Assembly (NCBI GenBank): GCA_964545165.1
Contig: CAZJEQ010000004.1
Coordinates: forward strand, 17,716-81,715
Source: an uncultured Candidatus Saccharibacteria bacterium
GTDB taxonomy: Bacteria > Patescibacteriota > Minisyncoccia > Phycocordibacterales > UBA2100
Length of the DNA: 64,000 nt
Direction of reading: 5' to 3'
The notes beneath the pieces were generated by a model. That model did not search any database and was not told the DNA's origin. It saw only the letters and a program-made list of their open reading frames with translations. The translations under genes were made by a program, and so were the position numbers. Positions 7,258 through 61,774 of this stretch are shown one piece after another. Numbering within the stretch: the stretch's first letter is position 1; every line of letters begins with the position of its first letter.

Positions 7258-8319
7258 ATGGATTACGCGGCACAACTCAAAAAGTATCTCAACATCGTCA
7301 TGCACGAAGGTGCGTCTGATTTGCACCTCTCGAGTGGTGCACACCCGACCATACGTGTCGCGGGGCAGTTGACGCCGATGCTTAAGGAAGAGGTCTTGAA
7401 ATCCGAAGATACCAAGGGCTACCTCCATGCGCTCATCTCGCCAGACAAAGAGGCGCGCTTTATGACGACACAGGAGGTTGATTTCTCATACCAGAGTGAA
7501 GACGGACAGCGATTCCGTGGCAATGCGTATTTTGAACGCGGCTCCATCTCCATTGCGCTTCGCGTCATCCCCAAGGTCATCAAGACTGTGCAGGAGCTCA
7601 ACCTGCCGGAAGTGCTCACCTCGTTTGCGCGTCGCAGCCAGGGCTTTTTCCTCGTGGTCGGCCCGGTGGGGCAGGGGAAGACCACGACACTCGCGGCACT
7701 CATCGAGATGATCAACACCGAGCGCATGGAGCATATCGTGACCATCGAAGATCCGATCGAATATCTCTTTGAGCCGAAGCAATCGCTCATCGATCAGCGC
7801 GAGGTCAAAATCGATACCAAGGATTTCCAGACGGCGCTCACCAGTGCCTTCCGTCAAGATATCGACGTGCTTTTGGTCGGGGAGATGCGCGAGCATGAGA
7901 CGATGGCAGCAGCAGTCACTGCCGCTGAGACCGGACACCTCGTCTTCTCCACGATGCACACCAACGACGCGGCACAGACAGTCGAGCGCATTATCGACAC
8001 CTTCCCGGCTGGTCAGCAGGACCAAATTCGCTTACAGCTCTCCGCGTCGCTCGCGGGCATCTTCAGTCAGCGCCTCGTGCCGCGTATTTCGGGTGGGCTC
8101 ATCCCTGCGTGCGAGCTCCTCATCAATACCAAAGCGGTGGCTAACCTCATCCGCGAGAAACGCACCCATGAATTGAACACCGTCATCGAGACGGGCTCAT
8201 CCGAGGGCATGATCGATATGAATCGTTCGCTCGCCGAGCTCGTCAATCGTGGCGAGATTACGCAGGAGACCGCGTATGCGCACAGCCTCAATCCCAACAT
8301 TCTCCAGAAGCTCATCTAA
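7258..8319 (+). CDS. pilT: twitching-motility (pilus retraction) ATPase PilT
   Basis: Walker A GPVGQGKTT; the PilT-specific AIRNLIRE-like motif (AVANLIREK). Confidence 0.9.
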   Translation: MDYAAQLKKYLNIVMHEGASDLHLSSGAHPTIRVAGQLTPMLKEEVLKSEDTKGYLHALISPDKEARFMTTQEVDFSYQSEDGQRFRGNAYFERGSISIALRVIPKVIKTVQELNLPEVLTSFARRSQGFFLVVGPVGQGKTTTLAALIEMINTERMEHIVTIEDPIEYLFEPKQSLIDQREVKIDTKDFQTALTSAFRQDIDVLLVGEMREHETMAAAVTAAETGHLVFSTMHTNDAAQTVERIIDTFPAGQQDQIRLQLSASLAGIFSQRLVPRISGGLIPACELLINTKAVANLIREKRTHELNTVIETGSSEGMIDMNRSLAELVNRGEITQETAYAHSLNPNILQKLI

Positions 8320-8322
8320 TCT

Positions 8323-9534
8323 ATGGCTGTCTTCAACTACACCGCGCTCGACCAGGAGGGCAACAAGCGCGAAGGATCGATCGATGCGATCAACATGGAC
8401 GTGGCCATCGCGGCGCTGCAACGTCGCGGCCTTATCATTTCGCAGATAGACGAGCCCGCAGAAAAGCGCTCAGGACTCTCCAAGCAGATCACTTTTTTCA
8501 GCGGCGTGAAGAACGCCGATGTGGTGATGCTCTCGCGTCAAATCACCACACTCTTCGAGGCGCAGGTCTCAGCGTTGCGCGCCTTCCGCCTCCTCGCTTC
8601 TGAGGCACGCACGCCTGTTCTGGGCGACAAGCTCACCGAAATCGCCAACGACATTCAGAGTGGCTCGCCGATTTCGGTCGCGCTCGGCAAGCAGCCGGAC
8701 ATGTTTAGTCCCTTCTACGTCAACATGGTCCGTGCAGGCGAAGAGTCAGGCAAGCTCGATGAAACCTTTGCCTTCCTGGCCGATTATCTTGATCGCAACT
8801 ACGAAATCACCCAGAAGGCTAAGAATGCTTTGATCTATCCGGCCTTTATCTTCTCGACATTTCTGGTCGTGATGGGCCTCATGCTCACCTTTATTATTCC
8901 AAATCTCGCGGAAATGCTTCAGGGAACAGGGCAGGCAATTCCGATCTACACAAGAATCGTCATCGGACTCTCTGACTTTATTCGTCATTACATACTGCTC
9001 ATTTTGATTGCACTCGTCGGTGGCGGCGTCTTCTTCTACCGCTACGGCAAGACCGCCCCAGGACGTGCGATGCTCTCGCGTGCACGACTCGAGACACCGG
9101 TCATTGGCGGCATCTACCAGAAGATCTTTCTCTCGCGCATCGCCGACAACCTCTCCACCATGCTCAAGAGCGGTATTCAGGTATTGCGTGGCATTGAAAT
9201 CACTGCCACGGTCGTGGAGGATGCGACATACGAACGCATTTTGAAGAGTGCCGCAGAGGACGTGAAGGCGGGCCTACCCGTTTCCGAGGCGCTCCGAAAA
9301 TACCCGGAAATGCCCGGTATTGTCGTCGCGATGATGAAAATCGGTGAAGAGACCGGCAACATGGGAGAGATTCTCGAGACCATGGCGCGCTTTTACCGTC
9401 GCGAAGTAAATAACGCCGTCGACACGATGGTGGATCTCATCGAGCCGGTGATGATCGTCGCGCTTGCTGTCGGCGTCGCCACGCTGCTCGCATCGGTTTT
9501 GGTGCCAATCTACAACATCGCCTCCGGCTTTTGA
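8323..9534 (+). CDS. pilC: type IV pilus platform protein PilC (GspF family)
   Basis: Two T2SS-F domains; three TM helices. Confidence 0.9.
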   Translation: MAVFNYTALDQEGNKREGSIDAINMDVAIAALQRRGLIISQIDEPAEKRSGLSKQITFFSGVKNADVVMLSRQITTLFEAQVSALRAFRLLASEARTPVLGDKLTEIANDIQSGSPISVALGKQPDMFSPFYVNMVRAGEESGKLDETFAFLADYLDRNYEITQKAKNALIYPAFIFSTFLVVMGLMLTFIIPNLAEMLQGTGQAIPIYTRIVIGLSDFIRHYILLILIALVGGGVFFYRYGKTAPGRAMLSRARLETPVIGGIYQKIFLSRIADNLSTMLKSGIQVLRGIEITATVVEDATYERILKSAAEDVKAGLPVSEALRKYPEMPGIVVAMMKIGEETGNMGEILETMARFYRREVNNAVDTMVDLIEPVMIVALAVGVATLLASVLVPIYNIASGF

Positions 9535-9658
9535 CCCCGCCCTAGAGGCTCGCCGCACCGCGGGCCGACGAGCGTTGTTATCCACATGATGGGACGCCGG
9601 AAGAGCGTGAAGCGGTACAATGTCGATACTTATAAACTATTTCATTTTGCCCCTATAT

Positions 9659-10206: not shown

Positions 10207-10238
10207 ACGAAAAAGCGCCCCTCGCGGGGCGCTTTTTC
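10207..10238 (+). terminator. rho-independent terminator after the pilin gene
   Basis: AAAAAGCGCCCC-tcgc-GGGGCGCTTTTT. Confidence 0.6.
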
Positions 10239-10242
10239 GTGT

Positions 10243-10375
10243 GTACACCCAACGTCCCGTCCCTGCGGGGACGTGTCCGGGTGTAACTCAAGGTTGCACC
10301 CCACGTCACACTCCTGCAGGGGTGTGTCCGGGCGTAACTCTTCAAATTCTCTGGTGAGAATTTGAAGGTTATACT
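10243..10375 (+). repeat. structured intergenic repeat, two tandem units (locus A)
   Basis: Consensus CCACGTC-hairpin-TGTCCGGG-nGTAACTC-hairpin(TTCAAATTCTC/GAGAATTTGAA)-GGTTATA(CT); the second unit ends in TATACT 8 nt before the pilD ATG. Related copies at 17395 and 50491. Confidence 0.6.
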
Positions 10376-10383
10376 TGCCTCTA

Positions 10384-11181
10384 ATGCTTTCCGCCCTGGT
10401 ATTCGCATGCTTCGGGCTCATCATCGGGAGCTTTCTCAACGTGGTCATTGTGCGCCGCTCGATTCGATCGCTTGCCGGTCGAAGCGGCTGCCTCTCTTGT
10501 TGTGCGCAGCTGCGGGCAATTGATCTCGTACCGATCGTCTCGTGGCTCGCGCTTCGTGGTCGCTGTCGCTCCTGCGGCAGTGGGATCTCGATGCAGTACC
10601 CGCTTGTCGAGGGAGCGACGGCGCTCGTCTTTGGGATGATCGGCGGTGCAGGCCTCCCGCTCATCTCGAGTGCGCTCGCCTGCGTTATCGGTGCGCTCCT
10701 GATCGCTATTGCTGCATACGACGCACGTCATACCATCATTCCCGATGAGTGGGTGTACAGCGCGGCGCTGCTCGCGCTGGCTTTTGCGCTGAACGAGCAC
10801 GGATACTCATTAGCACTGCTTCTCGCGGGGCCGATTGCGGCGCTCCCGCTCTTTGCATTGTGGCTGGTCTCGCGTGGTCGTTGGATGGGTTTGGGGGATG
10901 CGAAGCTTGCGCTCGCGATGGGGTGGTTGCTGGGCCCCGTGTATGGCATCTATGCGGTCGGAAGTGCGTTTGTGATCGGTGCGATGCTCTCACTTGCGAT
11001 TCTGGTGCCGCTTCCGCACTATGTGCGCGCGCTTAAAAAAGCGGGGATAGTGCGCGCCCACCGTGCGACGTCATATACAATGAAAAGCGAAGTCCCATTC
11101 GGACCGTTTCTGATACTTTCATGCTTCATCGTATGGTTCGCGCTACTCTTCGCTTTACCGCTTCCCGGCGCTTTCTTCTAG
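10384..11181 (+). CDS. pilD: prepilin peptidase PilD (A24 family)
   Basis: Cys-tetrad N-terminal region CxxC..CxxC; multi-TM; catalytic Asp motifs (DARH, GLGDAKL). Track start 10375 is a TTG; the ATG at 10384 is preferred. Confidence 0.85.
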   Translation: MLSALVFACFGLIIGSFLNVVIVRRSIRSLAGRSGCLSCCAQLRAIDLVPIVSWLALRGRCRSCGSGISMQYPLVEGATALVFGMIGGAGLPLISSALACVIGALLIAIAAYDARHTIIPDEWVYSAALLALAFALNEHGYSLALLLAGPIAALPLFALWLVSRGRWMGLGDAKLALAMGWLLGPVYGIYAVGSAFVIGAMLSLAILVPLPHYVRALKKAGIVRAHRATSYTMKSEVPFGPFLILSCFIVWFALLFALPLPGAFF

Positions 11182-13637: not shown

Positions 13638-13663
13638 ACGGCTGTTTTTTCCTGCCACTCTAG

Positions 13664-15975
<2,312 letters not shown>

Positions 15976-17386: not shown

Positions 17387-17394
17387 CGCGGTAT

Positions 17395-17545
17395 GCCCCA
17401 CGTCGTATTGCTGCACGAATACGTCCGGGCATAACTCCTGAGATTCTCTGGTGAGCATCCGGGTGACACCCCACGTCACATTCCTGCGGGAATGTGTCCG
17501 GGAGTAACTCTTCAAATTCTCTACTGAGAATTTGAAGGTTATAAT
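17395..17545 (+). repeat. structured intergenic repeat, two tandem units (locus B)
   Basis: Same family as 10243 and 50491. Unit 2 is CCACGTCACATTCCTGCGGGAATGTGTCCGGGAGTAACTCTTCAAATTCTCtactGAGAATTTGAAGGTTATAAT; the TATAAT at 17540-45 lies 6 nt before the ATG at 17552. Confidence 0.6.
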
Positions 17546-17551
17546 CTCCAT

Positions 17552-18250
17552 ATGCAAGGAGATCCTACGGTCGCTCACGGCGTCGGCTGGGCGTTTCAAT
17601 CAGTACTCGAAGTGATGTTTCGCTGGGTGCCGGCGACGCTCCTGACGATGACCAACACCTCGTCGTATCCCAATCCTGATCCCATCAAGACGCCACTGAC
17701 GCAGCCGGTCTCGACGACCGACGTGGTGAACTTCCTCCAAATAGCGTCGCCCGCATCGTTTGATCAGCTCTTCCATCAGTGGGCGCTGTTTGTCGCGATT
17801 TCCATCATGCTCTCATTGCTCCTGGGTGTGGCATGTCTCTACTGCGGTATTCGTATTTGGCAGGTACGACAGAATGAGCGCGCAAAGCGCCTTGCCTTTG
17901 CCCATACGGTGGCTGCCAAGGATGTGCCGAAGACGCAGCTCCGCTGGAATCGCATTCGCGAGCAGATTGCCGCACCGAGCGAAGATCAGTGGCGTCTCGC
18001 GATTCTTGAAGCCGACATCATGCTCAATGAGCTGCTCGATGTGCAGGGTCTGCGTGGAGAAACCATGGCCGACAAGCTCAAGCAGGCGAATCGTTCGCAA
18101 TTCCGTACCATCGATCTCGCATGGGAGGCCCATGCCATGCGTAATCGGATCGCGCACGAGAGCATGCACAAGCCACTCGACGAACACGAAGCGCGTCGCA
18201 CCATCGGAATGTTTGAGCAGGTATTTCGTGAATTCCAATTTGTTGAGTAA
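17552..18250 (+). CDS. hypothetical membrane protein with a C-terminal HEPN-like Rx4H motif
   Basis: One TM helix (ALFVAISIMLSLLLGVACLY); the C-terminal helical region ends ...AWEAHAMRNRIAHE (R-x4-H). Confidence 0.55.
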   Translation: MQGDPTVAHGVGWAFQSVLEVMFRWVPATLLTMTNTSSYPNPDPIKTPLTQPVSTTDVVNFLQIASPASFDQLFHQWALFVAISIMLSLLLGVACLYCGIRIWQVRQNERAKRLAFAHTVAAKDVPKTQLRWNRIREQIAAPSEDQWRLAILEADIMLNELLDVQGLRGETMADKLKQANRSQFRTIDLAWEAHAMRNRIAHESMHKPLDEHEARRTIGMFEQVFREFQFVE

Positions 18251-18927: not shown

Positions 18928-18999
18928 AGCGGGGTGGAGCAGTAGTAGCTCGCCAGGCTCATAACCTGGAGGTCGGGGGTGCAAGTCCCTCCCCCGCAA
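18928..18999 (+). tRNA. tRNA-Met (CAT), initiator-like
   Basis: Cloverleaf AGCGGGG..CTCATAA..; unpaired 1:72 (A:A); close to E. coli tRNA-fMet (CGCGGGGTGGAGCAG...CCCCGCAACCA); CCA not encoded. Confidence 0.8.
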
Positions 19000-20771: not shown

Positions 20772-20921
20772 AGAAGTACTAGTAGTAGATAGAGAAACGA
20801 ATAATAAGTAATGGAGAAGCTCGCGCTTTGGCGGGCTCTCTTCAATAGGAGTGGGACGAATCCCGAAACAGTTACTCCATTACCATAGCTGAAGCGCGAC
20901 AGGTCGTCAAGGGTATAACGC
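20772..20921 (-). promoter_or_regulatory. structured 5' leader of mntH (candidate Mn2+ riboswitch-like element)
   Basis: Minus-strand TTGACG-17-TATGGT promoter, then GGAGUAACUGUUUC-GGGA-UUCG-UCCC-ACUCC nested hairpin and long-range pairs (GUAAUGGAG/CUCCAUUAC); contains GGAGUAA, resembling the yybP-ykoY GGGAGUAG core. Confidence 0.3.
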
Positions 20922-20946
20922 AAAAATGCCCCGTAGGGCATTTTTG
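20922..20946. terminator. bidirectional terminator (terminates tRNA-Asp on the minus strand)
   Basis: AAAAATGCCC-cgta-GGGCATTTTT. Confidence 0.55.
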
Positions 20947-20952
20947 CTTTTG

Positions 20953-21026
20953 CGCGAGTGACGGGACTCGAACCCGCAGCCTCTCCCGTGACAGGGGAGT
21001 GCTCTAACCAATTGAGCTACACCCGC
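20953..21026 (-). tRNA. tRNA-Asp (GTC)
   Basis: Reverse complement GCGGGTGTAGCTCAATTGGTTAGAGCACTCCCCTGTCACGGGAGAGG..GGTTCGAGTCCCGTCACTCGCG. Confidence 0.85.
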
Positions 21027-23956: not shown

Positions 23957-24086
23957 GGAGTTTTCCGGAATAATGAAGTCTGCGATTGAGCCGCTCGTGA
24001 GACGCGGTATACTAATAACTCCCGCACGAATGCGTAATATGCGTCGCGCATAGGACGTCTCATTCAGAGAGCTATACTTCATTCCC

Positions 24087-24770
24087 ATGATCTATTTTGA
24101 GAAAGTAACCAAAATTTACGCAGATGGAGGACCTGCGGCCGTAGCCGATGTCACGCTCGGCATTGATCCGGGCGAGTTCGTTTCGCTCGTGGGTCACTCG
24201 GGTGCCGGCAAGACCACGCTGCTCAAAATGCTCTTCGCTGAGACGTATCCGACCGAAGGCTCGGTCTTTTTCGGGTCACGGGATATTGCCGCACTCTCAC
24301 AAAAGGATCTGCTGCACATGCGCCGCAACATCGGTACCGTCTTCCAGGATTTCCGACTCTTGCCGACAAAAAATGTGTACGAAAATATTGCCTTTGCCCT
24401 TGAGGTAGCAGGGAAGAGCGATGAGGATATCCAGGCAGATGTGCCGCATGTGCTCGAGCTGGTGGGGCTCGCCGACAAAATCTGGAGTTTCCCGCGGCAG
24501 CTCTCCGGTGGTGAGCAGCAGCGCGTGGCGATTGCACGTGCCATCGTCAATCAGCCAGAGGTGCTCATTGCCGATGAGCCGACAGGCAATCTCGATCCCA
24601 TCAATGCGCACGACATCGTAGAGATTCTCAAGAAGATCAATGACCTCGGCACCACGGTGCTCCTGACTACACACAATAAGTCCGTCGTAGATTCTGTAGG
24701 ACGTCGTGTGGTGACGATGGATCAGGGGCGTGTGATTCGCGACGACAAGCAAGGTAAATACGTGCTCTAA
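24087..24770 (+). CDS. ftsE: cell division ABC ATPase FtsE
   Basis: Walker A GHSGAGKTT; LSGGEQQR signature; ~227 aa; followed by ftsX. Confidence 0.85.
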   Translation: MIYFEKVTKIYADGGPAAVADVTLGIDPGEFVSLVGHSGAGKTTLLKMLFAETYPTEGSVFFGSRDIAALSQKDLLHMRRNIGTVFQDFRLLPTKNVYENIAFALEVAGKSDEDIQADVPHVLELVGLADKIWSFPRQLSGGEQQRVAIARAIVNQPEVLIADEPTGNLDPINAHDIVEILKKINDLGTTVLLTTHNKSVVDSVGRRVVTMDQGRVIRDDKQGKYVL

Positions 24771-43931: not shown

Positions 43932-45449
43932 ATGCGTCTGATCAGTATGAGATATACCCACGCTTTTTTTGGATTGCTCCTTTTTACCGCACTTGTCGCA
44001 CCGAGTTCGACCTCGGCACTTGAGATCTCGGGATGGGTGCCGTATTGGCGTACCGCCACGGGGACCGCGGATACCATCGCGCACCTGAAGGATGTGACCG
44101 AGGTGAACCCCTTTGTCTATACGATCAAGAGCGACGGCACGCTGCTCGACAATGGTGCGATGAATCAGGATCCGTGGCAGTCGTTTGTCGTGGCGGCGCA
44201 TGCTCAAAACGTGCGCGTGATCCCCACGGTCATGACCTCCAATGGCACGCTTGTGCACGAACTCTTGAGTGACCCGCTCAAGCGTGAGCTGCTCGCTACA
44301 CGCATTTCATTGATGGTGATTGCTGGAAATTACGACGGTGTCGATATCGACTTCGAGGGCAAAAAGGCAGAGACGCGTGACGGCTTCTCGGCATTCCTAA
44401 AGAGTCTCTCTGAAAAGCTGCCAAACAAGTGGCTCTCATGCACCATCGAGACGCGCATTCCCGCAGAGGATCGCTACTACGGCACGACGATTCCGCCAGA
44501 TTACGGACAGTTTTCGAATGATCTCGTGCAGATCAATAAATACTGCGATCAGGTCAAGATCATGACCTACGATCAGCAGCGCATCGACCTCAAGCTCGCG
44601 GCAGATGTGGAATCGACAGGGGAATTGCATGCGCCGGTCGCGGACCCACGCTGGGTGGAGAAGGTCGTCAATCTGATGTCGAAAGACATCGATAAATCCA
44701 AGATCATGATTGGTGTCCCGACCTATGGATACGAATATGCGGTCACGGCGTATGCGGGACCGCAATACGTGTATGACATTCTTTGGACCTTTAATCCGGG
44801 GTACGCAACGCCGATTGCGCAGCAGCAGGGCATCACGCCGACGAGGAATTCCTCGGGTGAGCTGTTCTTTACCTATATCACCAATGTCACCACACCACCG
44901 CTCTCAGGGGGCACGAGTGCCATGCTTGCCGCCGCTGCCGCGAGCACCTTTGCGCAACAGAATAATTCCAACACGACCTTCCGCATGCTCACCTGGCCGG
45001 ATGCGCAATCGCTCCAGCAAAAGATCGATCTTGCGAAGCGTCTCGGCGTGCGCGGTGTCGCGATATTCAAATGGGATGGCGGTCAGGATCCTGCGATGTG
45101 GAACGTGATCGCGAATGCTGGTGCGACGAAACAAGTGGCGGCACCAACGAGCGCCACCGTGCCTGCGACTCCTGCCGCTGGCGCGATTACGCGGGCGCTT
45201 GCCGTCGGGTCTACTGGTGCGGATGTGAAGACACTGCAGCGTATCCTCAATCTTGCGACCGACACACGAGTCGCCGCGAGCGGGGTCGGATCTTCGGGTA
45301 GGGAATCGACGACCTTCGGTCCGGCGACACTCGTCGCACTCAAGAAATTCCAAGTGAAATACGGCATCGCGAAAGCGGGCGTTGTCGGCTATGGCTCCGT
45401 CGGCCCCAAAACCCGCGCCAAATTGAACGAACTCCTTACGAGTCTCTAG
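43932..45449 (+). CDS. GH18 family glycoside hydrolase with a C-terminal peptidoglycan-binding domain
   Basis: Signal peptide; GH18 catalytic motif DGVDIDFE; C-terminal PG_binding_1-like domain (TLQRILNL...LKKFQVKYGI). Confidence 0.75.
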   Translation: MRLISMRYTHAFFGLLLFTALVAPSSTSALEISGWVPYWRTATGTADTIAHLKDVTEVNPFVYTIKSDGTLLDNGAMNQDPWQSFVVAAHAQNVRVIPTVMTSNGTLVHELLSDPLKRELLATRISLMVIAGNYDGVDIDFEGKKAETRDGFSAFLKSLSEKLPNKWLSCTIETRIPAEDRYYGTTIPPDYGQFSNDLVQINKYCDQVKIMTYDQQRIDLKLAADVESTGELHAPVADPRWVEKVVNLMSKDIDKSKIMIGVPTYGYEYAVTAYAGPQYVYDILWTFNPGYATPIAQQQGITPTRNSSGELFFTYITNVTTPPLSGGTSAMLAAAAASTFAQQNNSNTTFRMLTWPDAQSLQQKIDLAKRLGVRGVAIFKWDGGQDPAMWNVIANAGATKQVAAPTSATVPATPAAGAITRALAVGSTGADVKTLQRILNLATDTRVAASGVGSSGRESTTFGPATLVALKKFQVKYGIAKAGVVGYGSVGPKTRAKLNELLTSL

Positions 45450-45505: not shown

Positions 45506-46174
45506 CTACCGTGACAGTGGTTGTACATCAGGAATCATTGATCCCTGCGGCTGGTCGAACGGCGTTTCCGCTCGCGTGATACGGGTGCGGCATATCCAGT
45601 CGGCGATAGGAAGCACTACATTGAAGTTCCTGCCACGCATATCGTAGTGGTGGAGCAGGTGACGGGCATTGATCCTCTTGAACCAGTCGGTCTTTTCGAT
45701 CCGACTCGCAAGCGGCTTGAACATCATCTGGTACCAGGGCGTGCCCTCGATCCAGAGCACTACCGGCTTGTGCATCACCCAGTGTGTCGACTCGTAAGCC
45801 CCGTAGTACAGCAGGATGATGATGGCCTCGGTGCCGCAGCATGTGAGCACGATACGCCACGGTACCCAGTCCATCAGCGCGAGCGGAAACGATATGAGCG
45901 CGAAGGGGATGGTACCGAGTACGACGAGCAGTGGTCCGTTCCACCACGCCATGGGAATCGTCTCCTCATCCGCGGGATTGTGCAGATGGTAGCTCGCGTC
46001 CGAGCCAAAGATGCCGTGATGCGTCTCGGCGTGCGCCTTGTACGGGTAATCAAATACCCATCCGAAGATCCGGAGCGGCTGGTGCATAACGAATCGATGC
46101 AGCCAGTACTCAGCGAACGAGGTATACGGTATCCCAAGTGGCAGCGTGAAGAGGATTGTCAAAAAGATATCCAT
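45506..46174 (-). CDS. fatty acid hydroxylase / sterol desaturase superfamily membrane protein
   Basis: Histidine boxes HRFVMH, HAETHH, HHYDM; multiple TM helices. Confidence 0.75.
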   Translation of the reverse strand: MDIFLTILFTLPLGIPYTSFAEYWLHRFVMHQPLRIFGWVFDYPYKAHAETHHGIFGSDASYHLHNPADEETIPMAWWNGPLLVVLGTIPFALISFPLALMDWVPWRIVLTCCGTEAIIILLYYGAYESTHWVMHKPVVLWIEGTPWYQMMFKPLASRIEKTDWFKRINARHLLHHYDMRGRNFNVVLPIADWICRTRITRAETPFDQPQGSMIPDVQPLSR

Positions 46175-46242
46175 TGCCTACCCCCAGCGTTGTCTCGTTG
46201 GAGTATACGTGCAAATGTGCACCTCGAAAGAGTGGTGTAACT

Positions 46243-46317
46243 TTGCCTTGCGAAGTTCCTGGCTCCGTCGGCCCCAAGTCCCGCACCAAGCTCAACGAAG
46301 CCCTCGCAGCTCTCTAG
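46243..46317 (+). pseudogene. remnant duplicate of the 3' end of the GH18 gene (PG-binding domain C-terminus)
   Basis: GGCTCCGTCGGCCCCAAGTCCCGCACCAAGCTCAACGAAGCCCTCGCAGCTCTCTAG encodes GSVGPKSRTKLNEALAAL*, about 75% identical in nucleotides to 45392-45449 (GSVGPKTRAKLNELLTSL*). Confidence 0.4.
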
Positions 46318-49939: not shown

Positions 49940-50422
49940 ATGACGGAAGTACTGATTACCTCAGTTGGGAGGCAAGTTCCCCGGGCGATCGAACAGCACT
50001 TCGCAAAATACGGAGTGGGTTCGGATCACTTGAGTGAGCCGTTCCGCGTCACACAGGATGAAGTGAGCGCGTTCACCCGCCTCTTCAACGACACGAATCC
50101 CATTCACACGTCCGAGAGCGGGCTCGGGGCTTCGGTTGTTCCGGCGCTTATGATTCCGCCGCTCATCACCAAGCATCGGCCAGTGCCGACGCCGTATGAG
50201 CTGGCCGGTCGGCAGCTCGGAATCAAGGAGACGGGCAAAACCGAATACCGCAAGCCGATGTTCGTCGAGGTCGACGAGGCCCGGGTGAAATATCGATTGC
50301 TCGAGGTGCCGCGGGCAACGGCGCTCGGGGTCATGATTCCGGTCGCGTATGCGATCGTCGTCGATGACAAGGACATTGTGCGCGGATCGCTCACGCTGAC
50401 CTACTTCGAACTTCGCAACTGA
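49940..50422 (+). CDS. MaoC-like (hotdog-fold) dehydratase family protein
   Basis: FTRLFNDTNPIHT motif of MaoC/hotdog proteins. Confidence 0.65.
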   Translation: MTEVLITSVGRQVPRAIEQHFAKYGVGSDHLSEPFRVTQDEVSAFTRLFNDTNPIHTSESGLGASVVPALMIPPLITKHRPVPTPYELAGRQLGIKETGKTEYRKPMFVEVDEARVKYRLLEVPRATALGVMIPVAYAIVVDDKDIVRGSLTLTYFELRN

Positions 50423-50490
50423 GAGAGCTCTATATCGAGCGCGGGACCCGATTGGTCACGCGCTCGAACTGCATAAGGGCAATTTGATAT

Positions 50491-50566
50491 GCTCCACGTC
50501 ACATCTCTACAGAGATGTGTCCGGGCATAACTCCTGAGATTCCCTGCTGAGAATCTCAGGGTTACA
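50491..50566 (+). repeat. structured intergenic repeat (locus C)
   Basis: CCACGTCACATCTCTacagAGAGATGTGTCCGGGCATAACTCCTGAGATTCcctgctgaGAATCTCAGGGTTACA, then ATG; both stems are complementary but differ in sequence from the loci A and B copies. Confidence 0.6.
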
Positions 50567-50968
50567 ATGACAAGTATGAAAAAGCCACTACCCGAAAACG
50601 AAGAGGGATTTAAGGAGATGCTTACGCCGGAAGAATATAAAGTGCTGCGTGAGAAGGGGACGGAAGCGCCATTTAGCGGCGAATATGTCCACGAAAAGGC
50701 CGACGGCACCTACGAGTGTAAGGTCTGCGGTAATCCGCTTTTTGATTCGACCTCCAAATTTGATAGTGGCACGGGCTGGCCGTCATTTGATTCTGCGCTC
50801 CCCGGCGCGGTCGAGACGCACGCTGATACCGAGCACGGTATGGTGCGCACCGAAATCACCTGCGCGCGCTGTGGCTCCCACCTCGGTCACGTCTTCGACG
50901 ACGGCCCCACTGCTACAGGTAAGAGGTACTGTATAAACTCGGTTTGTCTTGATTTAGAAGAGAAGTAG
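50567..50968 (+). CDS. msrB: peptide methionine sulfoxide reductase MsrB
   Basis: CxxC..CxxC zinc ligands; GWPSF and [10 protein letters not shown] catalytic motif. Confidence 0.85.
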
Positions 50969-57865: not shown

Positions 57866-57899
57866 TTCACCGCAAACCGAGACGTGATATATTGCCCAC

Positions 57900-58979
57900 A
57901 TGATCCGAACACCATTTTTCGACCCTCTCAAGAGTTATGAAGAAAATTACGATACGGGTCCGTTCGGTGCCTTCGCCGATAGTACGCGTGCCGAGTCGGT
58001 AGGCGAGCCGATGCACGAGTTTCTCGGGCAGCCTGTATATCTCCCGCTCGGTATTCCTGCAGGGCCGCTCCTCAACAGCGCGTACTGTGCTGCCGCCTTC
58101 GCCAAAGGGTTCGATATAGCGGTCTATAAGACCGTGCGCAGTGGTATCTTCCCGTGCCATCCATTTCCCAATGTCTTGGCCATTCATCCCGACGGCGATC
58201 TTACGATGGACAAACTGAAATCACCGCTGGTTGCGGATACGACGTATAGCGATCCACTCTCAATCACGAATTCTTTTGGTGTACCGTCGAAAGATCCAAG
58301 TGTGTGGCAGGAGGATGTAAAAAAAGCCATCGCCGCTGCAGGCAAGGGGCAGGTGCTGGTTCTGAGCTTCATGGGTACGGTACGACCCGACCAGTCGCAG
58401 GATGAATTCGTACAAGATTATGTCGACGCCGCTAAGCTCGCTTATGAGACGGGTGCGAAAATTCTTGAGACCAACCTCTCGTGCCCGAATATCGGCAATG
58501 AGGGACTCGTCTGCTACAACCTCGATGTCACCGAAAAGGTCGCCAAAGGGATTCGCAGCGTGATCGGATCAACGCCACTCGTCTTGAAGGTGGGGTATTA
58601 CGCACAAGATGCCGACATGGAGCGTCTCGGTGAAATCGCGAATGCGTATGCCGACGGCGTCTCAGGTATCAACACACTGCAGGCCGAAGTGCGCAACGCA
58701 GCCGGCGAGCAGGCGCTTCCCGGATCTCCCGCGAGACTGCGCTCCGGAGTCTGTGGCGCGGGCATCAAATGGGCAGGGCTCGACTTTGCACGTCGCATGA
58801 AAGCCATCAAAGACAAACGCAGCTTCAGCTTTGCAATCGAAGGTGTGGGCGGTGTGCTCAATGCCGCTGACTATCAGGAATATCGCGCCGCTGGGGCGGA
58901 CAGTGTGATGTCTGCTACCGGCGCCATGTGGAATCCCATGCTTGCTACAGAGATCAAAGCAGAAGTTTTGAATGGATAA
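57900..58979 (+). CDS. dihydroorotate dehydrogenase family protein (class 1-like)
   Basis: TIM-barrel DHODH motifs (NLSCPN, GVGGV). Confidence 0.7.
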   Translation: MIRTPFFDPLKSYEENYDTGPFGAFADSTRAESVGEPMHEFLGQPVYLPLGIPAGPLLNSAYCAAAFAKGFDIAVYKTVRSGIFPCHPFPNVLAIHPDGDLTMDKLKSPLVADTTYSDPLSITNSFGVPSKDPSVWQEDVKKAIAAAGKGQVLVLSFMGTVRPDQSQDEFVQDYVDAAKLAYETGAKILETNLSCPNIGNEGLVCYNLDVTEKVAKGIRSVIGSTPLVLKVGYYAQDADMERLGEIANAYADGVSGINTLQAEVRNAAGEQALPGSPARLRSGVCGAGIKWAGLDFARRMKAIKDKRSFSFAIEGVGGVLNAADYQEYRAAGADSVMSATGAMWNPMLATEIKAEVLNG

Positions 58980-59910: not shown

Positions 59911-59953
59911 GTAGAAACTTGGCTTTTTACCGTTTGCGCCGTACTCTACCTAG

Positions 59954-61774
59954 ATGTGCGGCATTTTTGCGTATACGGGCAAGAAAAACGCAGGCGAGGT
60001 CCTGCTCGACGGACTCGTCTCTCTTGAATATCGCGGCTACGACTCGGCTGGTATCCATGTGCCCGAGAGCGGCTTGATTCGTGCCGTAGGTCCTGTGGCA
60101 CACCTGCGTCGCAAAGTGCCTGCCGGATACTTTGGGCTCAGCGGTATCGCGCACCTGCGCTGGGCTACGCACGGTGAGCCGAATGAAGTGAATGCACATC
60201 CGCACTCGGATTGTGATGGCGAAATCTGGATTGTGCACAATGGCATCATCGAAAATTTTCGCGAGCTCAAAGCTGAGCTTGCTGCGAAGGGACACACCTT
60301 TAAATCTGAGTCTGATACGGAAGTGCTCGCACACCTCATCGAGGATGAAATGAAAAGCGATGCGGATTTTGAGAAAGCCTCGCTCCGCGCATTGAACCGT
60401 GTGCGTGGCACCTACGGGATCGCGATGCAGTACAAGAAAGAGCCGGAGCGCCTCATTGCGGCGCGCATGGGCTCTCCCATTGTGCTCGGTCTCGGCGATG
60501 GTGAGCACTTCATCGCGTCCGATGCCTCGCCGATTTTGCCGCACACCAACAAGGTGGTCTTTCTCGAAGACGGGGAGGTGGCGGTCCTGACGCCCGGTGA
60601 ACATCGCATCTTCAAGCTCGACGCGTCGCAGGTAAAGCGCGATGCCACCGAAATTGAGTGGAGTCCTGAAGAAGCACAGCGCGGCGGCTACGAGCACTTT
60701 ATGCTTAAGGAAATTATGGAGGGTCCCGAGGTGGTAGAAAATTCGGTACGTGGACGCCTGCTTGTCGAAGCGGGCAACGTGAAGCTCGGAGGACTCGAGA
60801 GTGTGGCAGAGCAGCTCGCAAAAATCGATCGCATCATCATTGTCGCGTGCGGGACCGCCTACTATGCGGGGCTGATCGGCGAGTACATGATCGAAGAGCA
60901 CGCGGGAATTCCCGTCGAGGTAGAACTCGGCTCTGAATTCCGGTACCGAAAGCCCGTTATCAATGCACGAACTGCCGTCCTCGCGATTTCGCAGAGCGGT
61001 GAGACGCTCGATACGCTCGAAGCAGTACGTGAAGGGAAGCGCAATGGTGCGCTCGCCCTCGGTATCGTAAACACGGTGGGTTCGACCATTGCGCGCGAGA
61101 CCGAAGCCGGCGTCTATAACCATGCGGGGCCGGAAATCAGCGTGGTCTCCACCAAAGCATTCCTCTCACAGCTCACCGTGCTCTCGCTCCTCACTATTTT
61201 CCTCGGTCGCCAGCGCGGCATGTCGGAGGAGACCGGAAAGAAGCTCGCGGAAGAGCTCAAGCACTTGCCGGAGAAACTCCGCAGTATTCTTGCGCAGGAG
61301 CCCGAGATTAGAGCGCTCGCAGAAAAATACAAAGACAGTCGCGACTTTATGTTTATCGGTCGCAAGTATAATCTCCCGATTGCGTACGAAGGTGCACTCA
61401 AACTCAAAGAATGCTCCTATGTGCATGCCGAAGGGTGCGGTGCAGGGGAGTTGAAGCACGGACACCTCGCCATGATCGATGAGAATTTCCCGATTGTCGC
61501 GATTGCGACCAACGACAGCGTCTATGGCAAGGTCTTCTCTGCTATCCAGCAGGTGAAAGCCCGCAAAGGGCCCGTCATCGCGATTGCGACAGAAGGTAAT
61601 AAAGAGATGGCGGAAGTTGCGGATGACGTGATCTATGTGCCGAAGACGATCGAGATGCTCTCACCGATTCTCAACGTCGTGCCGCTCCAGCTCTTCGCGT
61701 ATCACTTCTCGCGCCAGCGTGGCCTCAATGTCGATCGTCCAAGAAACCTTGCTAAGTCTGTAACTGTTGAGTGA
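59954..61774 (+). CDS. glmS: glutamine--fructose-6-phosphate aminotransferase
   Basis: N-terminal MCGIFAY (Cys2 nucleophile); two SIS domains; C-terminal ...LAKSVTVE. Confidence 0.95.
   Translation: MCGIFAYTGKKNAGEVLLDGLVSLEYRGYDSAGIHVPESGLIRAVGPVAHLRRKVPAGYFGLSGIAHLRWATHGEPNEVNAHPHSDCDGEIWIVHNGIIENFRELKAELAAKGHTFKSESDTEVLAHLIEDEMKSDADFEKASLRALNRVRGTYGIAMQYKKEPERLIAARMGSPIVLGLGDGEHFIASDASPILPHTNKVVFLEDGEVAVLTPGEHRIFKLDASQVKRDATEIEWSPEEAQRGGYEHFMLKEIMEGPEVVENSVRGRLLVEAGNVKLGGLESVAEQLAKIDRIIIVACGTAYYAGLIGEYMIEEHAGIPVEVELGSEFRYRKPVINARTAVLAISQSGETLDTLEAVREGKRNGALALGIVNTVGSTIARETEAGVYNHAGPEISVVSTKAFLSQLTVLSLLTIFLGRQRGMSEETGKKLAEELKHLPEKLRSILAQEPEIRALAEKYKDSRDFMFIGRKYNLPIAYEGALKLKECSYVHAEGCGAGELKHGHLAMIDENFPIVAIATNDSVYGKVFSAIQQVKARKGPVIAIATEGNKEMAEVADDVIYVPKTIEMLSPILNVVPLQLFAYHFSRQRGLNVDRPRNLAKSVTVE

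Follow-up and report, generated by a model that had tools for sequence, protein, structure and literature searches.

The ends of the Correia repeat-enclosed elements (CREE) of Neisseria form, together with the target, -10-type promoter sequences (PMC2649163; PMC10969869). Like other promoter-bearing MITEs, CREE are small, non-coding and dispersed, lie mostly just upstream of genes, and are present or absent according to the strain; they have long terminal inverted repeats (TIRs), an IHF site and promoters possible at either end. In the REP/BIME/RAYT and IS200/IS605 systems, which are compared here by their general features, recognition is thought to be of folded single-stranded DNA. Integron attC sites, some of which are isolated and have no integrase, carry the R''/R' consensus RYYYAAC/GTTRRRY, and their known lengths are 57–141 nt. 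Hairpin or cruciform promoters include the phage N4 virion RNA polymerase promoters and supercoil-driven cruciform switches.

The window (the whole stretch of 64 kb analysed here) contains five repeat units at three loci (A, B and C), all on the + strand; the places and shared architecture given for them by a sequence-only reading of this DNA were borne out. The core of the unit, TCCGGGNRTAACTC, occurs exactly five times in the window, and nine matches are found when up to two mismatches are allowed, against a shuffle mean of 1.78 (none of 100 shuffles reached 9). A covariance model of 85 positions detected no copy over the 64 kb beyond these five. The 5' part of a unit consists of TAYRCC-CC(A/C)ACGT followed by hairpin 1 (an 8-bp stem and a 4-nt loop, always 20 nt), and the 3' part of TCCGGG-NR-TAAC-TC, hairpin 2 (an 11-bp stem and a 4-nt loop) and G-GTTA-TAMT. 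The element is about 73–75 bp long and has no ORF. The two hairpins are mutually unrelated: hairpin 1 is GC-rich and variable, whereas hairpin 2 is AT-rich, with a conserved tip (ATTCTC-N4-GAGAAT) that is almost invariant among copies. The conserved flanks also pair, CC-CG with CG-GG for hairpin 1 and TAAC with GTTA for hairpin 2, so that either half of the unit forms a single extended, imperfect palindrome; in hairpin 2, the TAAC/GTTA base takes in the first two bases of the -10 hexamer. The left junction is 9 nt away from hairpin 1, and the right junction 6 nt away from hairpin 2. The consensus has no TIRs: the left end and the reverse complement of the right end match at 10 of 27 positions at best, with a longest run of 4.

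Both hairpins had been attributed to every unit, which needs correction for the two distal ones. At locus A, the distal unit A1 (10244–10299, + strand) is a short form, with a left half-box TACACC (10244–10249), hairpin 1 at 10256–10275 and the core TCCGGGTGTAACTC at 10276–10289; its hairpin 2 is deleted, 24 nt being gone between CTC repeats, and the junction reads AAGGTTGCAC. The gene-proximal unit A2 (10300–10375, + strand, 102 bits with the covariance model) is full, with hairpin 1 at 10307–10326, the core at 10327–10340, hairpin 2 at 10341–10366, then GGT and the -10 box TATACT (10370–10375); its DNA fold has an energy of -19.2 kcal/mol (z = -6.4). At locus B, the distal unit B1 (17392–17469, + strand) begins 4–5 nt past the gatA stop codon and comprises a left half-box TATGCC (17392–17397), hairpin 1 at 17404–17423 (six pairs), the core at 17424–17437 and a hairpin 2 with a degenerate 3' arm (GAGCATCCGGG) that is 2 nt short, followed by the junction GGTGACAC; as a whole, B1 folds no better than shuffles (z = -0.01). 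The gene-proximal unit B2 (17470–17545, + strand, 99 bits) is full, with hairpin 1 at 17477–17496, the core at 17497–17510, hairpin 2 at 17511–17536 and the -10 box TATAAT at 17540–17545 (DNA fold -21.8 kcal/mol, z = -8.4, the minus strand being equally stable). The single unit of locus C, C1 (50488–50568, + strand, 101 bits, DNA fold z = -5.6), is also full: left half-box TATGCT at 50488–50493, hairpin 1 at 50500–50519, core at 50520–50533, hairpin 2 at 50534–50559 and -10 box TACAAT at 50563–50568.

Upstream of the element at locus A lies the intrinsic terminator of the pilin gene (10210–10237, + strand, evident from the sequence itself), a GC stem followed by a T run that is conserved in three relatives (L023, L027 and L028). 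The downstream gene, pilD (prepilin peptidase; 10384–11181, + strand; Pfam A24_N_bact and Peptidase_A24), has its ATG 8 nt past the -10 box and no Shine-Dalgarno sequence. Locus B precedes a gene for a 232-aa protein with no assigned function (17552–18250, + strand, ATG 6 nt past the -10 box), whose start codon and N-terminus are kept in all relatives, with or without the element. Locus C precedes msrB (50576–50968, + strand; Pfam SelR, E = 7e-52; ATG 7 nt past the -10 box). The hexamer-to-ATG spacing of 0 nt reported before was counted to an extra in-frame ATG at 50567; this ATG is absent from relatives, whose MsrB starts at ATGaaaaag, so the true start is at 50576. Pfam confirmed the identities of the pilin, PilD, GatA and MsrB; the label "HEPN-like" for the 232-aa protein was left without support, as no Pfam match was found, and the 160-aa protein called "maoC-like" had no Pfam match in the window but a weak MaoC match in its L151 orthologue. 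The element was also said to follow the upstream stop codon directly, as it does at locus B (4 nt), but not at locus A, where the terminator intervenes, or at locus C, where 65 nt with a conserved hairpin separate the two.

Including related genomes, the family amounts to 25 units at 17 locus instances. Every gene-proximal unit (17/17) ends in a TANNNT hexamer 6–9 nt before the true start codon (8, 6 and 7 nt for loci A, B and C of the window), in agreement with the -10-type hexamer at leaderless distance that had been noticed; the left hexamer fits TANNNT in 1/17 cases. A TANNNT box 5–9 nt before a start codon with no Shine-Dalgarno sequence is the signature of a leaderless sigma-70-type promoter, and all 17 genes behind proximal units are predicted to be of this kind. 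The same arrangement is found at about 19 of the 64 genes in the window, just three of which carry the element. No -35 box was found in the element by a consensus scan; the TTGAGA of the 5' arm in hairpin 2 was considered for this role and rejected, being 23 bp from the -10 box and not conserved.

Comparison with relatives provides three independent pairs of filled and empty sites. Between gatA and the gene for the 232-aa protein, L024, L027 and L028 are empty (cgcggggTATAATtctccccATG in L024), and the filled site of the window reads cgcggTATGCC-CCACGT...GGT-TATAATctccatATG; between the pilin gene and pilD, L027 and L028 are empty; before msrB, L150 and L151 are empty (caatttgaTATACTgattttATG in L151), and the filled site of the window reads caatttgaTATGCT-CCACGT...GGGT-TACAATgacaagtATG. 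The empty orthologous sites already contain TATAAT, TATACT or TACAAT 6–8 nt before the same ATG. The element is, therefore, not the source of the promoter, contrary to the proposal that it supplies the -10 box of the downstream gene. Its insertion point lies between the TAT and the AMT of an existing -10 box; the 3' end of the element, GGT-TAT, rebuilds the box, and the left half-box has decayed to TATGCC. The orientation relative to the downstream gene is identical in 17/17 cases. TAT (up to TATRC) is found on both sides of the element and once in empty sites, the right copy lying within the selected -10 box; the left flank ends in TAT for most first units, and in L026 an 8-nt direct repeat, GGGTATAC, is present at both junctions.

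One locus has 0, 1, 1.5 or 2 copies, depending on the relative. Hairpin 2 is intact in 17/17 proximal units and deleted or degenerate in 7/8 distal units. Locus B and the locus in L010, although unrelated, have the same dimer junction (a 3' arm 2 nt short, then GGTGACAC). A2 and B2 of the window are nearly identical (55/59 plus 14/18 positions), and hairpin 1 of A1 matches that of the gene-proximal unit of L023 at 19/20 positions; a recent event can thus be reconstructed, in which the lineage of the window gained a B2-like unit on the gene side of locus A. At locus B, units B1 and B2 are identical at 56–58 of 59 positions (about 97%) outside hairpin 1 among three genomes in which four-fold sites are only 43–51% identical and synonymous changes have nearly reached saturation. 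Copies at loci A and C resemble their same-locus counterparts in other genomes no more closely than paralogues in a single genome resemble each other. With orthologous loci found empty, single or double, a MITE-like mobile cassette fits best of the three options proposed earlier, the others being a regulator-binding site and a 3'-UTR RNA element.

The family is restricted to a narrow clade of Kaiserbacteria-like bacteria of the Candidate Phyla Radiation (CPR); the clade DNA inspected amounts to only about 230 kb, part of which was retrieved because it bears the element. The units come from at least five assemblies, related CPR metagenomes among them, and the repeat is not unique to the window. 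The downstream genes are unrelated (pilD, msrB, HIT, ruvX-like, PBP2, exonuclease, HPF and others). Scans by exact patterns, which may miss diverged relatives, found real copies in a single MAG among genome contigs, the other eight matches being due to chance, and one further real copy, from Hainich groundwater, among metagenomes. No phage or plasmid match to the element was found by blastn in INPHARED and PLSDB, and the hairpin-2 motif had 0 matches in IMG/VR; 120 IMG/VR stretches recovered with a looser left-end pattern were chance matches with neither palindrome nor core. A search for inverted repeats in the more distant relatives L026, L151 and L027 revealed no second, diverged family, and a hairpin in the spacer downstream of gatA in L026, considered as a possible member, gave no convincing alignment with the element.

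The compensatory changes noticed in the stems of both hairpins proved to be part of a strong pattern of covariation. Hairpin 1 is 97.7% paired, with six of its eight pairs changed on both sides, and hairpin 2 is 92% paired, with four of 11 pairs changed on both sides; in 500 shuffles the score was never as high as the one observed, and slid controls are 27–49% paired. Hairpin 1 has 150 Watson-Crick, three G·T and one A·C pairs, and hairpin 2 has 176, six and seven, respectively, such that G·T is no commoner than A·C over the two stems (9 versus 8). Both strands of the element fold equally well, and the wobble pairs show no strand bias that would point to an active strand. All copies in the window are on the G-rich strand, as are most genes, which makes replication-strand bias uninformative. 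In L001, L010 and L019, the copies are preceded by an opposite-strand gene or a tRNA, with no TANNNT box in front, and no sense transcript is therefore expected there. Near-pure Watson-Crick pairing and copies beyond the reach of upstream transcripts point to a structure that acts as DNA, not RNA. Consistent with the view that the family was undescribed, Rfam at the gathering threshold detected tRNAs only over the window and, at E values up to 10 on locus B, no family (the best match to the element was a plant miRNA model, E = 0.72). A riboswitch or leader was rejected, given the unrelated downstream genes, the leaderless spacing and the copies beyond upstream transcription; a hammerhead-like CUGAGA in hairpin 2 is not conserved among copies. 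HAIR, CIRCE, parS and dif-like operators were set aside as well, their likeness having the wrong spacing or falling on variable positions.

On balance, the units are probably a small, non-autonomous mobile element of MITE or REP-like type, without TIRs, that targets the -10 boxes of leaderless genes, and this element may have been co-opted by the host. It shares with classical (DDE-derived) MITEs a small size, non-coding content, multiple copies and presence/absence (73–75 bp; three filled/empty loci), but not the TIRs. It resembles CREE in its dispersal, its position mostly just upstream of genes and the insertion of copies into one another or in clusters, and a TA or TAT duplication would be compatible with the data; it differs from CREE in having two unlike internal hairpins, no TIRs and a single orientation, and in restoring rather than creating a promoter. 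The likeness to REP/BIME and IS200/IS605-derived elements lies in extragenic imperfect palindromes without TIRs, conservation of structure over sequence, and tandem or clustered units. Insertion beside a short fixed sequence (the TAT of the left flank) with no clear target duplication, subterminal hairpins at both ends and one orientation in 17/17 cases are all as in IS200/IS605, in which, however, the end hairpins are similar, whereas here they are unrelated. The GTAG-type tetranucleotide of REP/BIME is absent, with CC(C/A)ACGT 5' of hairpin 1 and TAACTC 5' of hairpin 2 instead, and copies number tens rather than hundreds per genome and lie at -10 boxes rather than gene 3' ends.

From the filled and empty sites, we infer a mechanism in which the element, two adjacent imperfect palindromes with sequence-conserved bases (with bulge and internal loop) and stems free to vary if complementary, would enter the -10 hexamer of a leaderless promoter between TAT and AMT, in one fixed orientation. 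Because the 3' end of the element is GGT-TAT, the hexamer would be rebuilt beside the gene and expression preserved, and the orphaned left half-box would become TATGCC-like and lose its promoter role. The rebuilt box would be a target again, so further units would insert on the gene side and form tandem dimers, and the older, distal units would then lose hairpin 2 by palindrome deletion. The hairpins may serve as recognition structures for a trans-acting enzyme on folded single-stranded or cruciform DNA, candidates being an HUH/Y1 transposase (IS200/IS605 or RAYT type) and a tyrosine recombinase that works as on the attC sites of integrons; the conserved bases and covarying stems could then result from selection for transposition competence. 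Some observations sit less well with a mobile element. No transposase or recombinase (including tyrosine recombinases and RAYT/Y1) was detected with Pfam in about 50 ORFs of the window, and about 232 kb contained neither a longer version with an ORF between the hairpins nor an orphan left or right end beside an ORF. A repeat as short as TAT does not distinguish a target duplication of 2–3 bp from site-specific recombination or from insertion 3' of a fixed target; genomes share more occupied loci than random insertion predicts, which calls for inheritance or hot spots; and the fixed orientation could also come from selection on promoter function. A neutral, fixed selfish copy would hardly account for the near-identity at locus B, which suggests host-level constraint or very recent spread.

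A more specific and rather doubtful version of the mobile element is one that homes to promoters, a TIR-less, two-hairpin element with the -10 hexamer itself as target, acting strand-specifically through a folded single strand and regenerating the promoter. The single-stranded target could be the non-template strand of the open complex or the lagging-strand template, and the element could then spread at no cost from one leaderless promoter to the next in a minimal CPR genome; its palindromes may, secondarily, tie these promoters to supercoiling or to a hairpin-binding protein.

A cis-regulatory promoter module of the host, perhaps mobile in origin but now maintained by the host, is possible, albeit unlikely. 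Its conserved sequences (CCCCACGT, TCCGGG-NR-TAACTC and ATTCTC-N4-GAGAAT, the last near -28) would be putative sites for a regulator or nucleoid protein, or cruciform extrusion of the palindromes might let supercoiling influence the neighbouring promoter, which is leaderless and has no -35 box. The locus B units, about 97% identical among three genomes despite near-saturated synonymous sites, argue for such a module, as do the retention of hairpin 2 only beside a functional -10 box, the inclusion of the first two hexamer bases in its TAAC/GTTA base and its near-invariant, operator-like tip; purely Watson-Crick stems would suit a role as double-stranded or cruciform DNA. A possible resemblance to hairpin or cruciform promoters lies in a palindrome that adjoins the melted region on its upstream side and overlaps it, and in a structure better conserved than the sequence, although here the promoter of relatives works without the palindrome, the -10 box is of the normal sigma-70 type and there is no sign of a dedicated polymerase. 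The element is, however, dispensable, as close relatives use the same -10 box for the same genes without it, and the downstream genes have no common function. The stem of hairpin 1 varies freely, unlike the site of a sequence-specific dimeric regulator, and its flanks are asymmetric (CCCACGT versus TCCGGG), which does not make a simple dyad operator. No candidate regulator was found, and same-locus copies at A and C are no closer than paralogues within a genome.

It is improbable that the units are ORF-less cassettes moved by conservative site-specific recombination of the integron attC or Xer type, in which hairpin 2 would be the folded attC-like site and the cassette, as a circle, would recombine with the -10 region through a G(T)TAT core. 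G(G/T)TAT at both junctions, the 8-nt direct repeat of L026 and the occurrence of tandem arrays are consistent with such a cassette. The base of hairpin 2, (G/A)(C/T)NTAAC ... GTTATAC, matches the attC R''/R' consensus at 5–6 of 7 positions, and the likeness extends to a folded hairpin in which the paired bases are conserved (xxxTAAC/GTTAxxx) and the middle is variable, to unpaired bases conserved at the foot of the hairpins and to a GTTA core at the junctions. Unlike attC, however, the site spans only about 43 nt from R'' to R', below the known range of 57–141 nt, and is accompanied by a second, unrelated hairpin; units are single or paired at scattered housekeeping promoters rather than in a cassette array next to an integrase, and the scanned ORFs of the window yielded no tyrosine recombinase. 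A transcribed RNA element (a 3'-UTR structure, a terminator or insulator before the leaderless promoter, or, with a transcription start farther upstream, a structured 5' UTR) is very improbable: it would account for two stable covarying hairpins, for the position of most copies behind a co-oriented gene (B1 is 4 nt after the gatA stop) and for the terminator-like call made by a simple scan on hairpin 2 and the following TTATACTT, and an insulator against read-through would help leaderless genes, but it is opposed by the divergent gene or tRNA upstream of the L001, L010 and L019 copies, the canonical terminator already preceding locus A, the sequences after hairpin 1 (TCCGGG) and hairpin 2 (GGTTATAMT), neither of which is the U tract of an intrinsic terminator, the rarity of G·T pairs, unlike selected RNA helices, the absence of an Rfam match up to E 10, and a spacing of 6–9 nt between hexamer and ATG that has no Shine-Dalgarno sequence and is the one expected when transcription begins at the ATG.

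The genomes of CPR bacteria are tiny, with very short intergenic regions, and few mobile elements or regulators have been recognised in them. The family described here would be a small element that persists in such a genome by entering and rebuilding the -10 box of leaderless genes, a concrete case of promoters that can be invaded and duplicated, and perhaps rewired, while expression is kept. In Kaiserbacteria-like MAGs, its units mark places where the copy number changes and where rearrangement or mis-assembly may occur, and the comparison of empty and filled sites documents, at the level of sequence, putative -35-less, leaderless promoters in this lineage. If the hairpins are substrates of a hairpin-specific enzyme, they could open the way to a transposase or recombinase system that is new and has a short, defined target; should a host factor bind them instead, the units would be among the first cis-regulatory modules defined in CPR. 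Homing to promoters, if true, would represent a new target logic for transposition, and the first such repeat family described in the Candidate Phyla Radiation.

The window carries five units of the repeat at three loci, every one on the + strand, as the sequence-only reading had described. Units A1 (about 10244–10299) and A2 (10300–10375) lie between the pilin gene and pilD (locus A), units B1 (17392–17469) and B2 (17470–17545) between gatA and a gene for a 232-aa protein (locus B), and unit C1 (50488–50568) precedes msrB (locus C). A 14-nt core, TCCGGGNRTAACTC, occurs exactly five times; allowing up to two mismatches raises this to nine, whereas shuffled sequences average 1.78 and 0 of 100 reached nine. 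A covariance model run over the 64 kb found no copy beyond the five units. These align without gaps, and ACGTC and GTCCGGG are 18 nt apart throughout the window. In correction of the earlier description, A1 has no hairpin 2 and the 3' arm of hairpin 2 is degenerate in B1. The element follows directly on the upstream stop codon at locus B only, the copies at locus A sitting behind a canonical terminator (10210–10237). A GC-rich hairpin without a T run (gagcgcg...cgcgctc, 50441–50469), which may terminate the upstream gene despite lacking a U tract, lies between the gene for a 160-aa protein (49940–50422) and C1; its position is kept in the related metagenome contigs L149, L150 and L151. The name "HEPN-like" given to the 232-aa protein (17552–18250) is not borne out, as Pfam gives no match at E-values up to 0.01. 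The 160-aa protein, called "maoC-like", has no Pfam match itself (E up to 0.001), although its longer L151 orthologue, alone, matches MaoC_dehydratas weakly.

Elsewhere in the window, six tRNA genes lie on both strands between 18928 and 31000 (at 18928, 19306, 20953, 22799, 22952 and 30878). The minus-strand tRNA gene at 20953–21026 is followed by a bidirectional terminator hairpin (20921–20946), which produced a weak, false match to the hairpin-2 part of the covariance model. Two direct repeats (38 nt at 79% identity and 58 nt at 78%, both copies of the latter ending in TAG) recur about 870–980 nt apart at 45035–45449 and 46018–46317, which suggests the ends of two paralogous + strand genes; the second overlaps the chosen minus-strand ORF 45506–46174, and gene calls there are doubtful.

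Each full unit consists of two extended imperfect palindromes (folding with DNA parameters, z = -5.5 to -8.4), and its minus strand folds equally well. In hairpin 1 the base does not vary (CC-A-CG-T / TC-CG-GG) and contains a bulged A as well as a small internal loop; above it come a C-G closing pair, likewise invariant, and seven pairs that vary, capped by a loop reading mostly TGCA. The base of hairpin 2 (TAAC-TC / G-GTTA) is also invariant, its next four pairs vary, and its tip (ATTCTC-N4-GAGAAT) is almost invariant. The compensatory stem changes noted earlier were confirmed and extend to more genomes: in 16 gene-proximal units, those next to the downstream gene, hairpin 1 is 97.7% paired, with both sides changed in six of its eight pairs, and hairpin 2 is 92% paired, with both sides changed in four of eleven. 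This covariation was reached in 0 of 500 shuffles, slid controls were paired at 27–49%, and a 12-unit set gave the same result. No terminal inverted repeats were found in the element.

A TANNNT hexamer stands 6–8 nt before the start codon in 19 of the 64 window genes (a few of these starts having been picked with the hexamer in mind); each of the remaining positions between 0 and 40 nt has 0–3 such hexamers. A Shine-Dalgarno-like 4-mer precedes only seven of the 64. In this lineage, first genes thus appear to be transcribed, as a rule, without a leader and from promoters lacking a -35 box. The window hexamers (e.g., 2256–2272, 13657–13675, 24073–24089, 57886–57902 and 59940–59956) have no evident -35 box, and the leaderless pattern recurs at the empty orthologous sites of relatives. 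The element had been thought to supply the -10 box of the genes behind it, at 0–8 nt from the ATG. The true starts lie 8, 6 and 7 nt after the hexamers; the 0-nt case at msrB arises from an additional ATG absent from relatives. The supply of the box does not stand. Sixteen of the 19 hexamer-bearing genes have no element, and where an orthologous site lacks it, a hexamer is present all the same and in an unchanged position. At locus B, the empty sites of the related contigs L024 (cgcggggTATAATtctccccATG), L027 (caggaTATACTtcatgcATG) and L028 (gtagTATACTttgacgaATG) may be compared with the filled window site, cgcggTATGCC-CCACGT…GAAGGT-TATAATctccatATG; at locus A, L027 and L028 are empty and the window reads gtgTACACC-CAACGT…GGT-TATACTtgcctctaATG; at locus C, L151 (caatttgaTATACTgattttATG) and L150 (cattgaTACAATgaacctATG) are empty and the window reads caatttgaTATGCT-CCACGT…CAGGGT-TACAATgacaagtATG. 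In these comparisons a -10 box already in place is interrupted after TAT and before AMT, and is restored by the element's own 3' end, GGT-TAT. The left remnant is TATGCC, TATACC or TACACC, and TANNNT is matched by the right hexamer in 17 of 17 cases and by the left in one of 17. On these alignments, the element is therefore judged to split an existing promoter and then rebuild it, rather than to donate one.

Occupancy at orthologous loci is patchy among close relatives. At locus B the window, L021 and L023 have two units and L022 has one, and no unit could be recognised in L024, L026, L027 or L028; locus A holds 1.5 in the window, two in L023, one in L026 and none in L027 and L028; locus C holds one in the window and L149 and none in L150 and L151. 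L021 and L022 encode an identical 471-aa GatA, followed in L021 (2285–2480) by two units and the usual 232-aa gene and in L022 (1425–1550) by one hybrid unit and an unrelated 270-aa gene, owing either to rearrangement at the repeat or to a chimeric join in short-read assembly. Window A2 is nearly identical to window B2 (55/59 outside hairpin 1, 14/18 inside), and A1 hairpin 1 matches that of the L023 gene-proximal unit (19/20), so the window lineage gained a B2-like unit at locus A, on the side of the gene. Same-locus copies at loci A and C are no closer across genomes than paralogues (45–48/59), which favours copy turnover there. Locus B and the L010 locus are unrelated, yet their dimers have the same junction (a 3' arm shortened by 2 nt, with GGTGACAC), so the dimer has probably also moved as a unit. 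Exactly 24 nt are missing between two CTC repeats in A1 and L001, a classic palindrome deletion. L026 also carries, at 8182–9611 (logan:ERR1422701_47), a diversity-generating retroelement (reverse transcriptase RVT_1 and a bAvd-like accessory gene) between ligA and gatC, which is absent from the syntenic window position (13673–15975).

The MITE-like mobile nature suggested by the sequence-only reading agrees with the patchy occupancy and covarying hairpins, and we lean, at little better than even confidence, towards a non-autonomous mobile element that inserts into -10 hexamers in a fixed orientation. Its two palindromes would be recognised, in folded DNA, by an enzyme acting in trans, candidates being HUH/Y1 transposases (IS200/IS605, RAYT) or tyrosine recombinases acting on attC-type sites. 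Hairpin-recognising enzymes of these kinds would select conserved paired bases, fixed unpaired residues and covarying distal stems. A Pfam scan of about 50 window ORFs found no such transposase or recombinase, and no long version with an internal ORF occurs in 232 kb. A host promoter module (operator or cruciform) is a rather unlikely but weightier rival. It draws on hairpin 2, intact in all 17 gene-proximal units, beside the -10 box, and deleted or degenerate in seven of eight distal units (the upstream members of dimers), all of which keep hairpin 1. It also draws on locus B, where B1 and B2 of the window, L021 and L023 agree at 56–58 of 59 positions when hairpin 1 is set aside, and differences in the B1 hairpin 1 stem are compensated, in genomes whose flanking genes are only 43–51% identical at four-fold degenerate sites. 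This conservation reflects purifying selection at the level of the host, selection to remain able to transpose, or a recent replacement. An integron-like cassette without an ORF, itself a variant of the mobile model, is improbable: the TAAC/GTTA base of hairpin 2 is like attC, but the element is too short and lies outside arrays. The TAT repeat is short enough to fit duplication of a 2–3 bp target, insertion 3' to a fixed target or site-specific recombination equally well.

A transcribed RNA element, such as the 3'-UTR structure proposed earlier, is the least credible of these readings, given the Watson-Crick stems, the upstream contexts and the locus A terminator. A selected RNA helix normally tolerates G·U and not A·C. 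The stems lack the corresponding asymmetry, with 150 Watson-Crick, three G·T and one A·C pairs in hairpin 1 and 176, six and seven, respectively, in hairpin 2. Upstream of the copies in L001, L010 and L019 lies a tRNA or a gene on the opposite strand, and no TANNNT box faces the element; with the terminator at locus A, a sense transcript across it is not expected at several loci. From both observations we infer that what is constrained is DNA, in the form of cruciforms or of folded single strands.

An exact-pattern scan of 185,579 species genomes found real copies in a single MAG, GCA_964349145.1 (contigs CAYGFN01), with seven matches of complete architecture, the remaining matches being due to chance; metagenomes scanned with exact patterns yielded one further copy, from Hainich groundwater. 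Syntenic contigs of further relatives, reached through close homologues of the window GatA and BipA, carry more copies at 81–92% protein identity, and none occur in L027 and L028 (77–78% GatA identity; 34 kb). The catalogue totals 25 units in 17 locus instances, from about 230 kb of the clade, partly chosen for carrying the element. The MAG (L001–L015, L024) is titled "Candidatus Saccharibacteria"; this label looks doubtful, because the MAG and the window are syntenic around GatA, and the nearest homologues of window GatA and BipA that carry a name come from Candidatus Kaiserbacteria/Paceibacterota (CPR/Patescibacteria). Nothing similar was found in Rfam, phage and plasmid collections or IMG/VR, and the CPR/Patescibacteria/Saccharibacteria literature searched does not describe the family. 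It is real, it is confined to its lineage, and the libraries searched contain no description of it.

In function, the closest systems are Correia elements and other promoter-bearing bacterial MITEs, which are small elements upstream of genes whose ends form -10 boxes (PMC2649163; PMC10969869). They differ from this element, which lacks their defining terminal inverted repeats and restores an existing promoter but creates none. REP/BIME and IS200/IS605-derived palindromic elements come nearest in form, but the present repeat has no GTAG motif, and its own two hairpins are dissimilar. It belongs to no Rfam family and, unlike attC, to no array; it is therefore a small dispersed palindromic or MITE-like repeat outside any named family. 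Promoter-associated small repeats are already well known as a general phenomenon, and the mechanism here is one that we infer. What is new is a lineage-restricted element whose target is both unusual and precise, namely the -10 boxes of leaderless genes, in a host group whose mobile and regulatory DNA is barely characterised.
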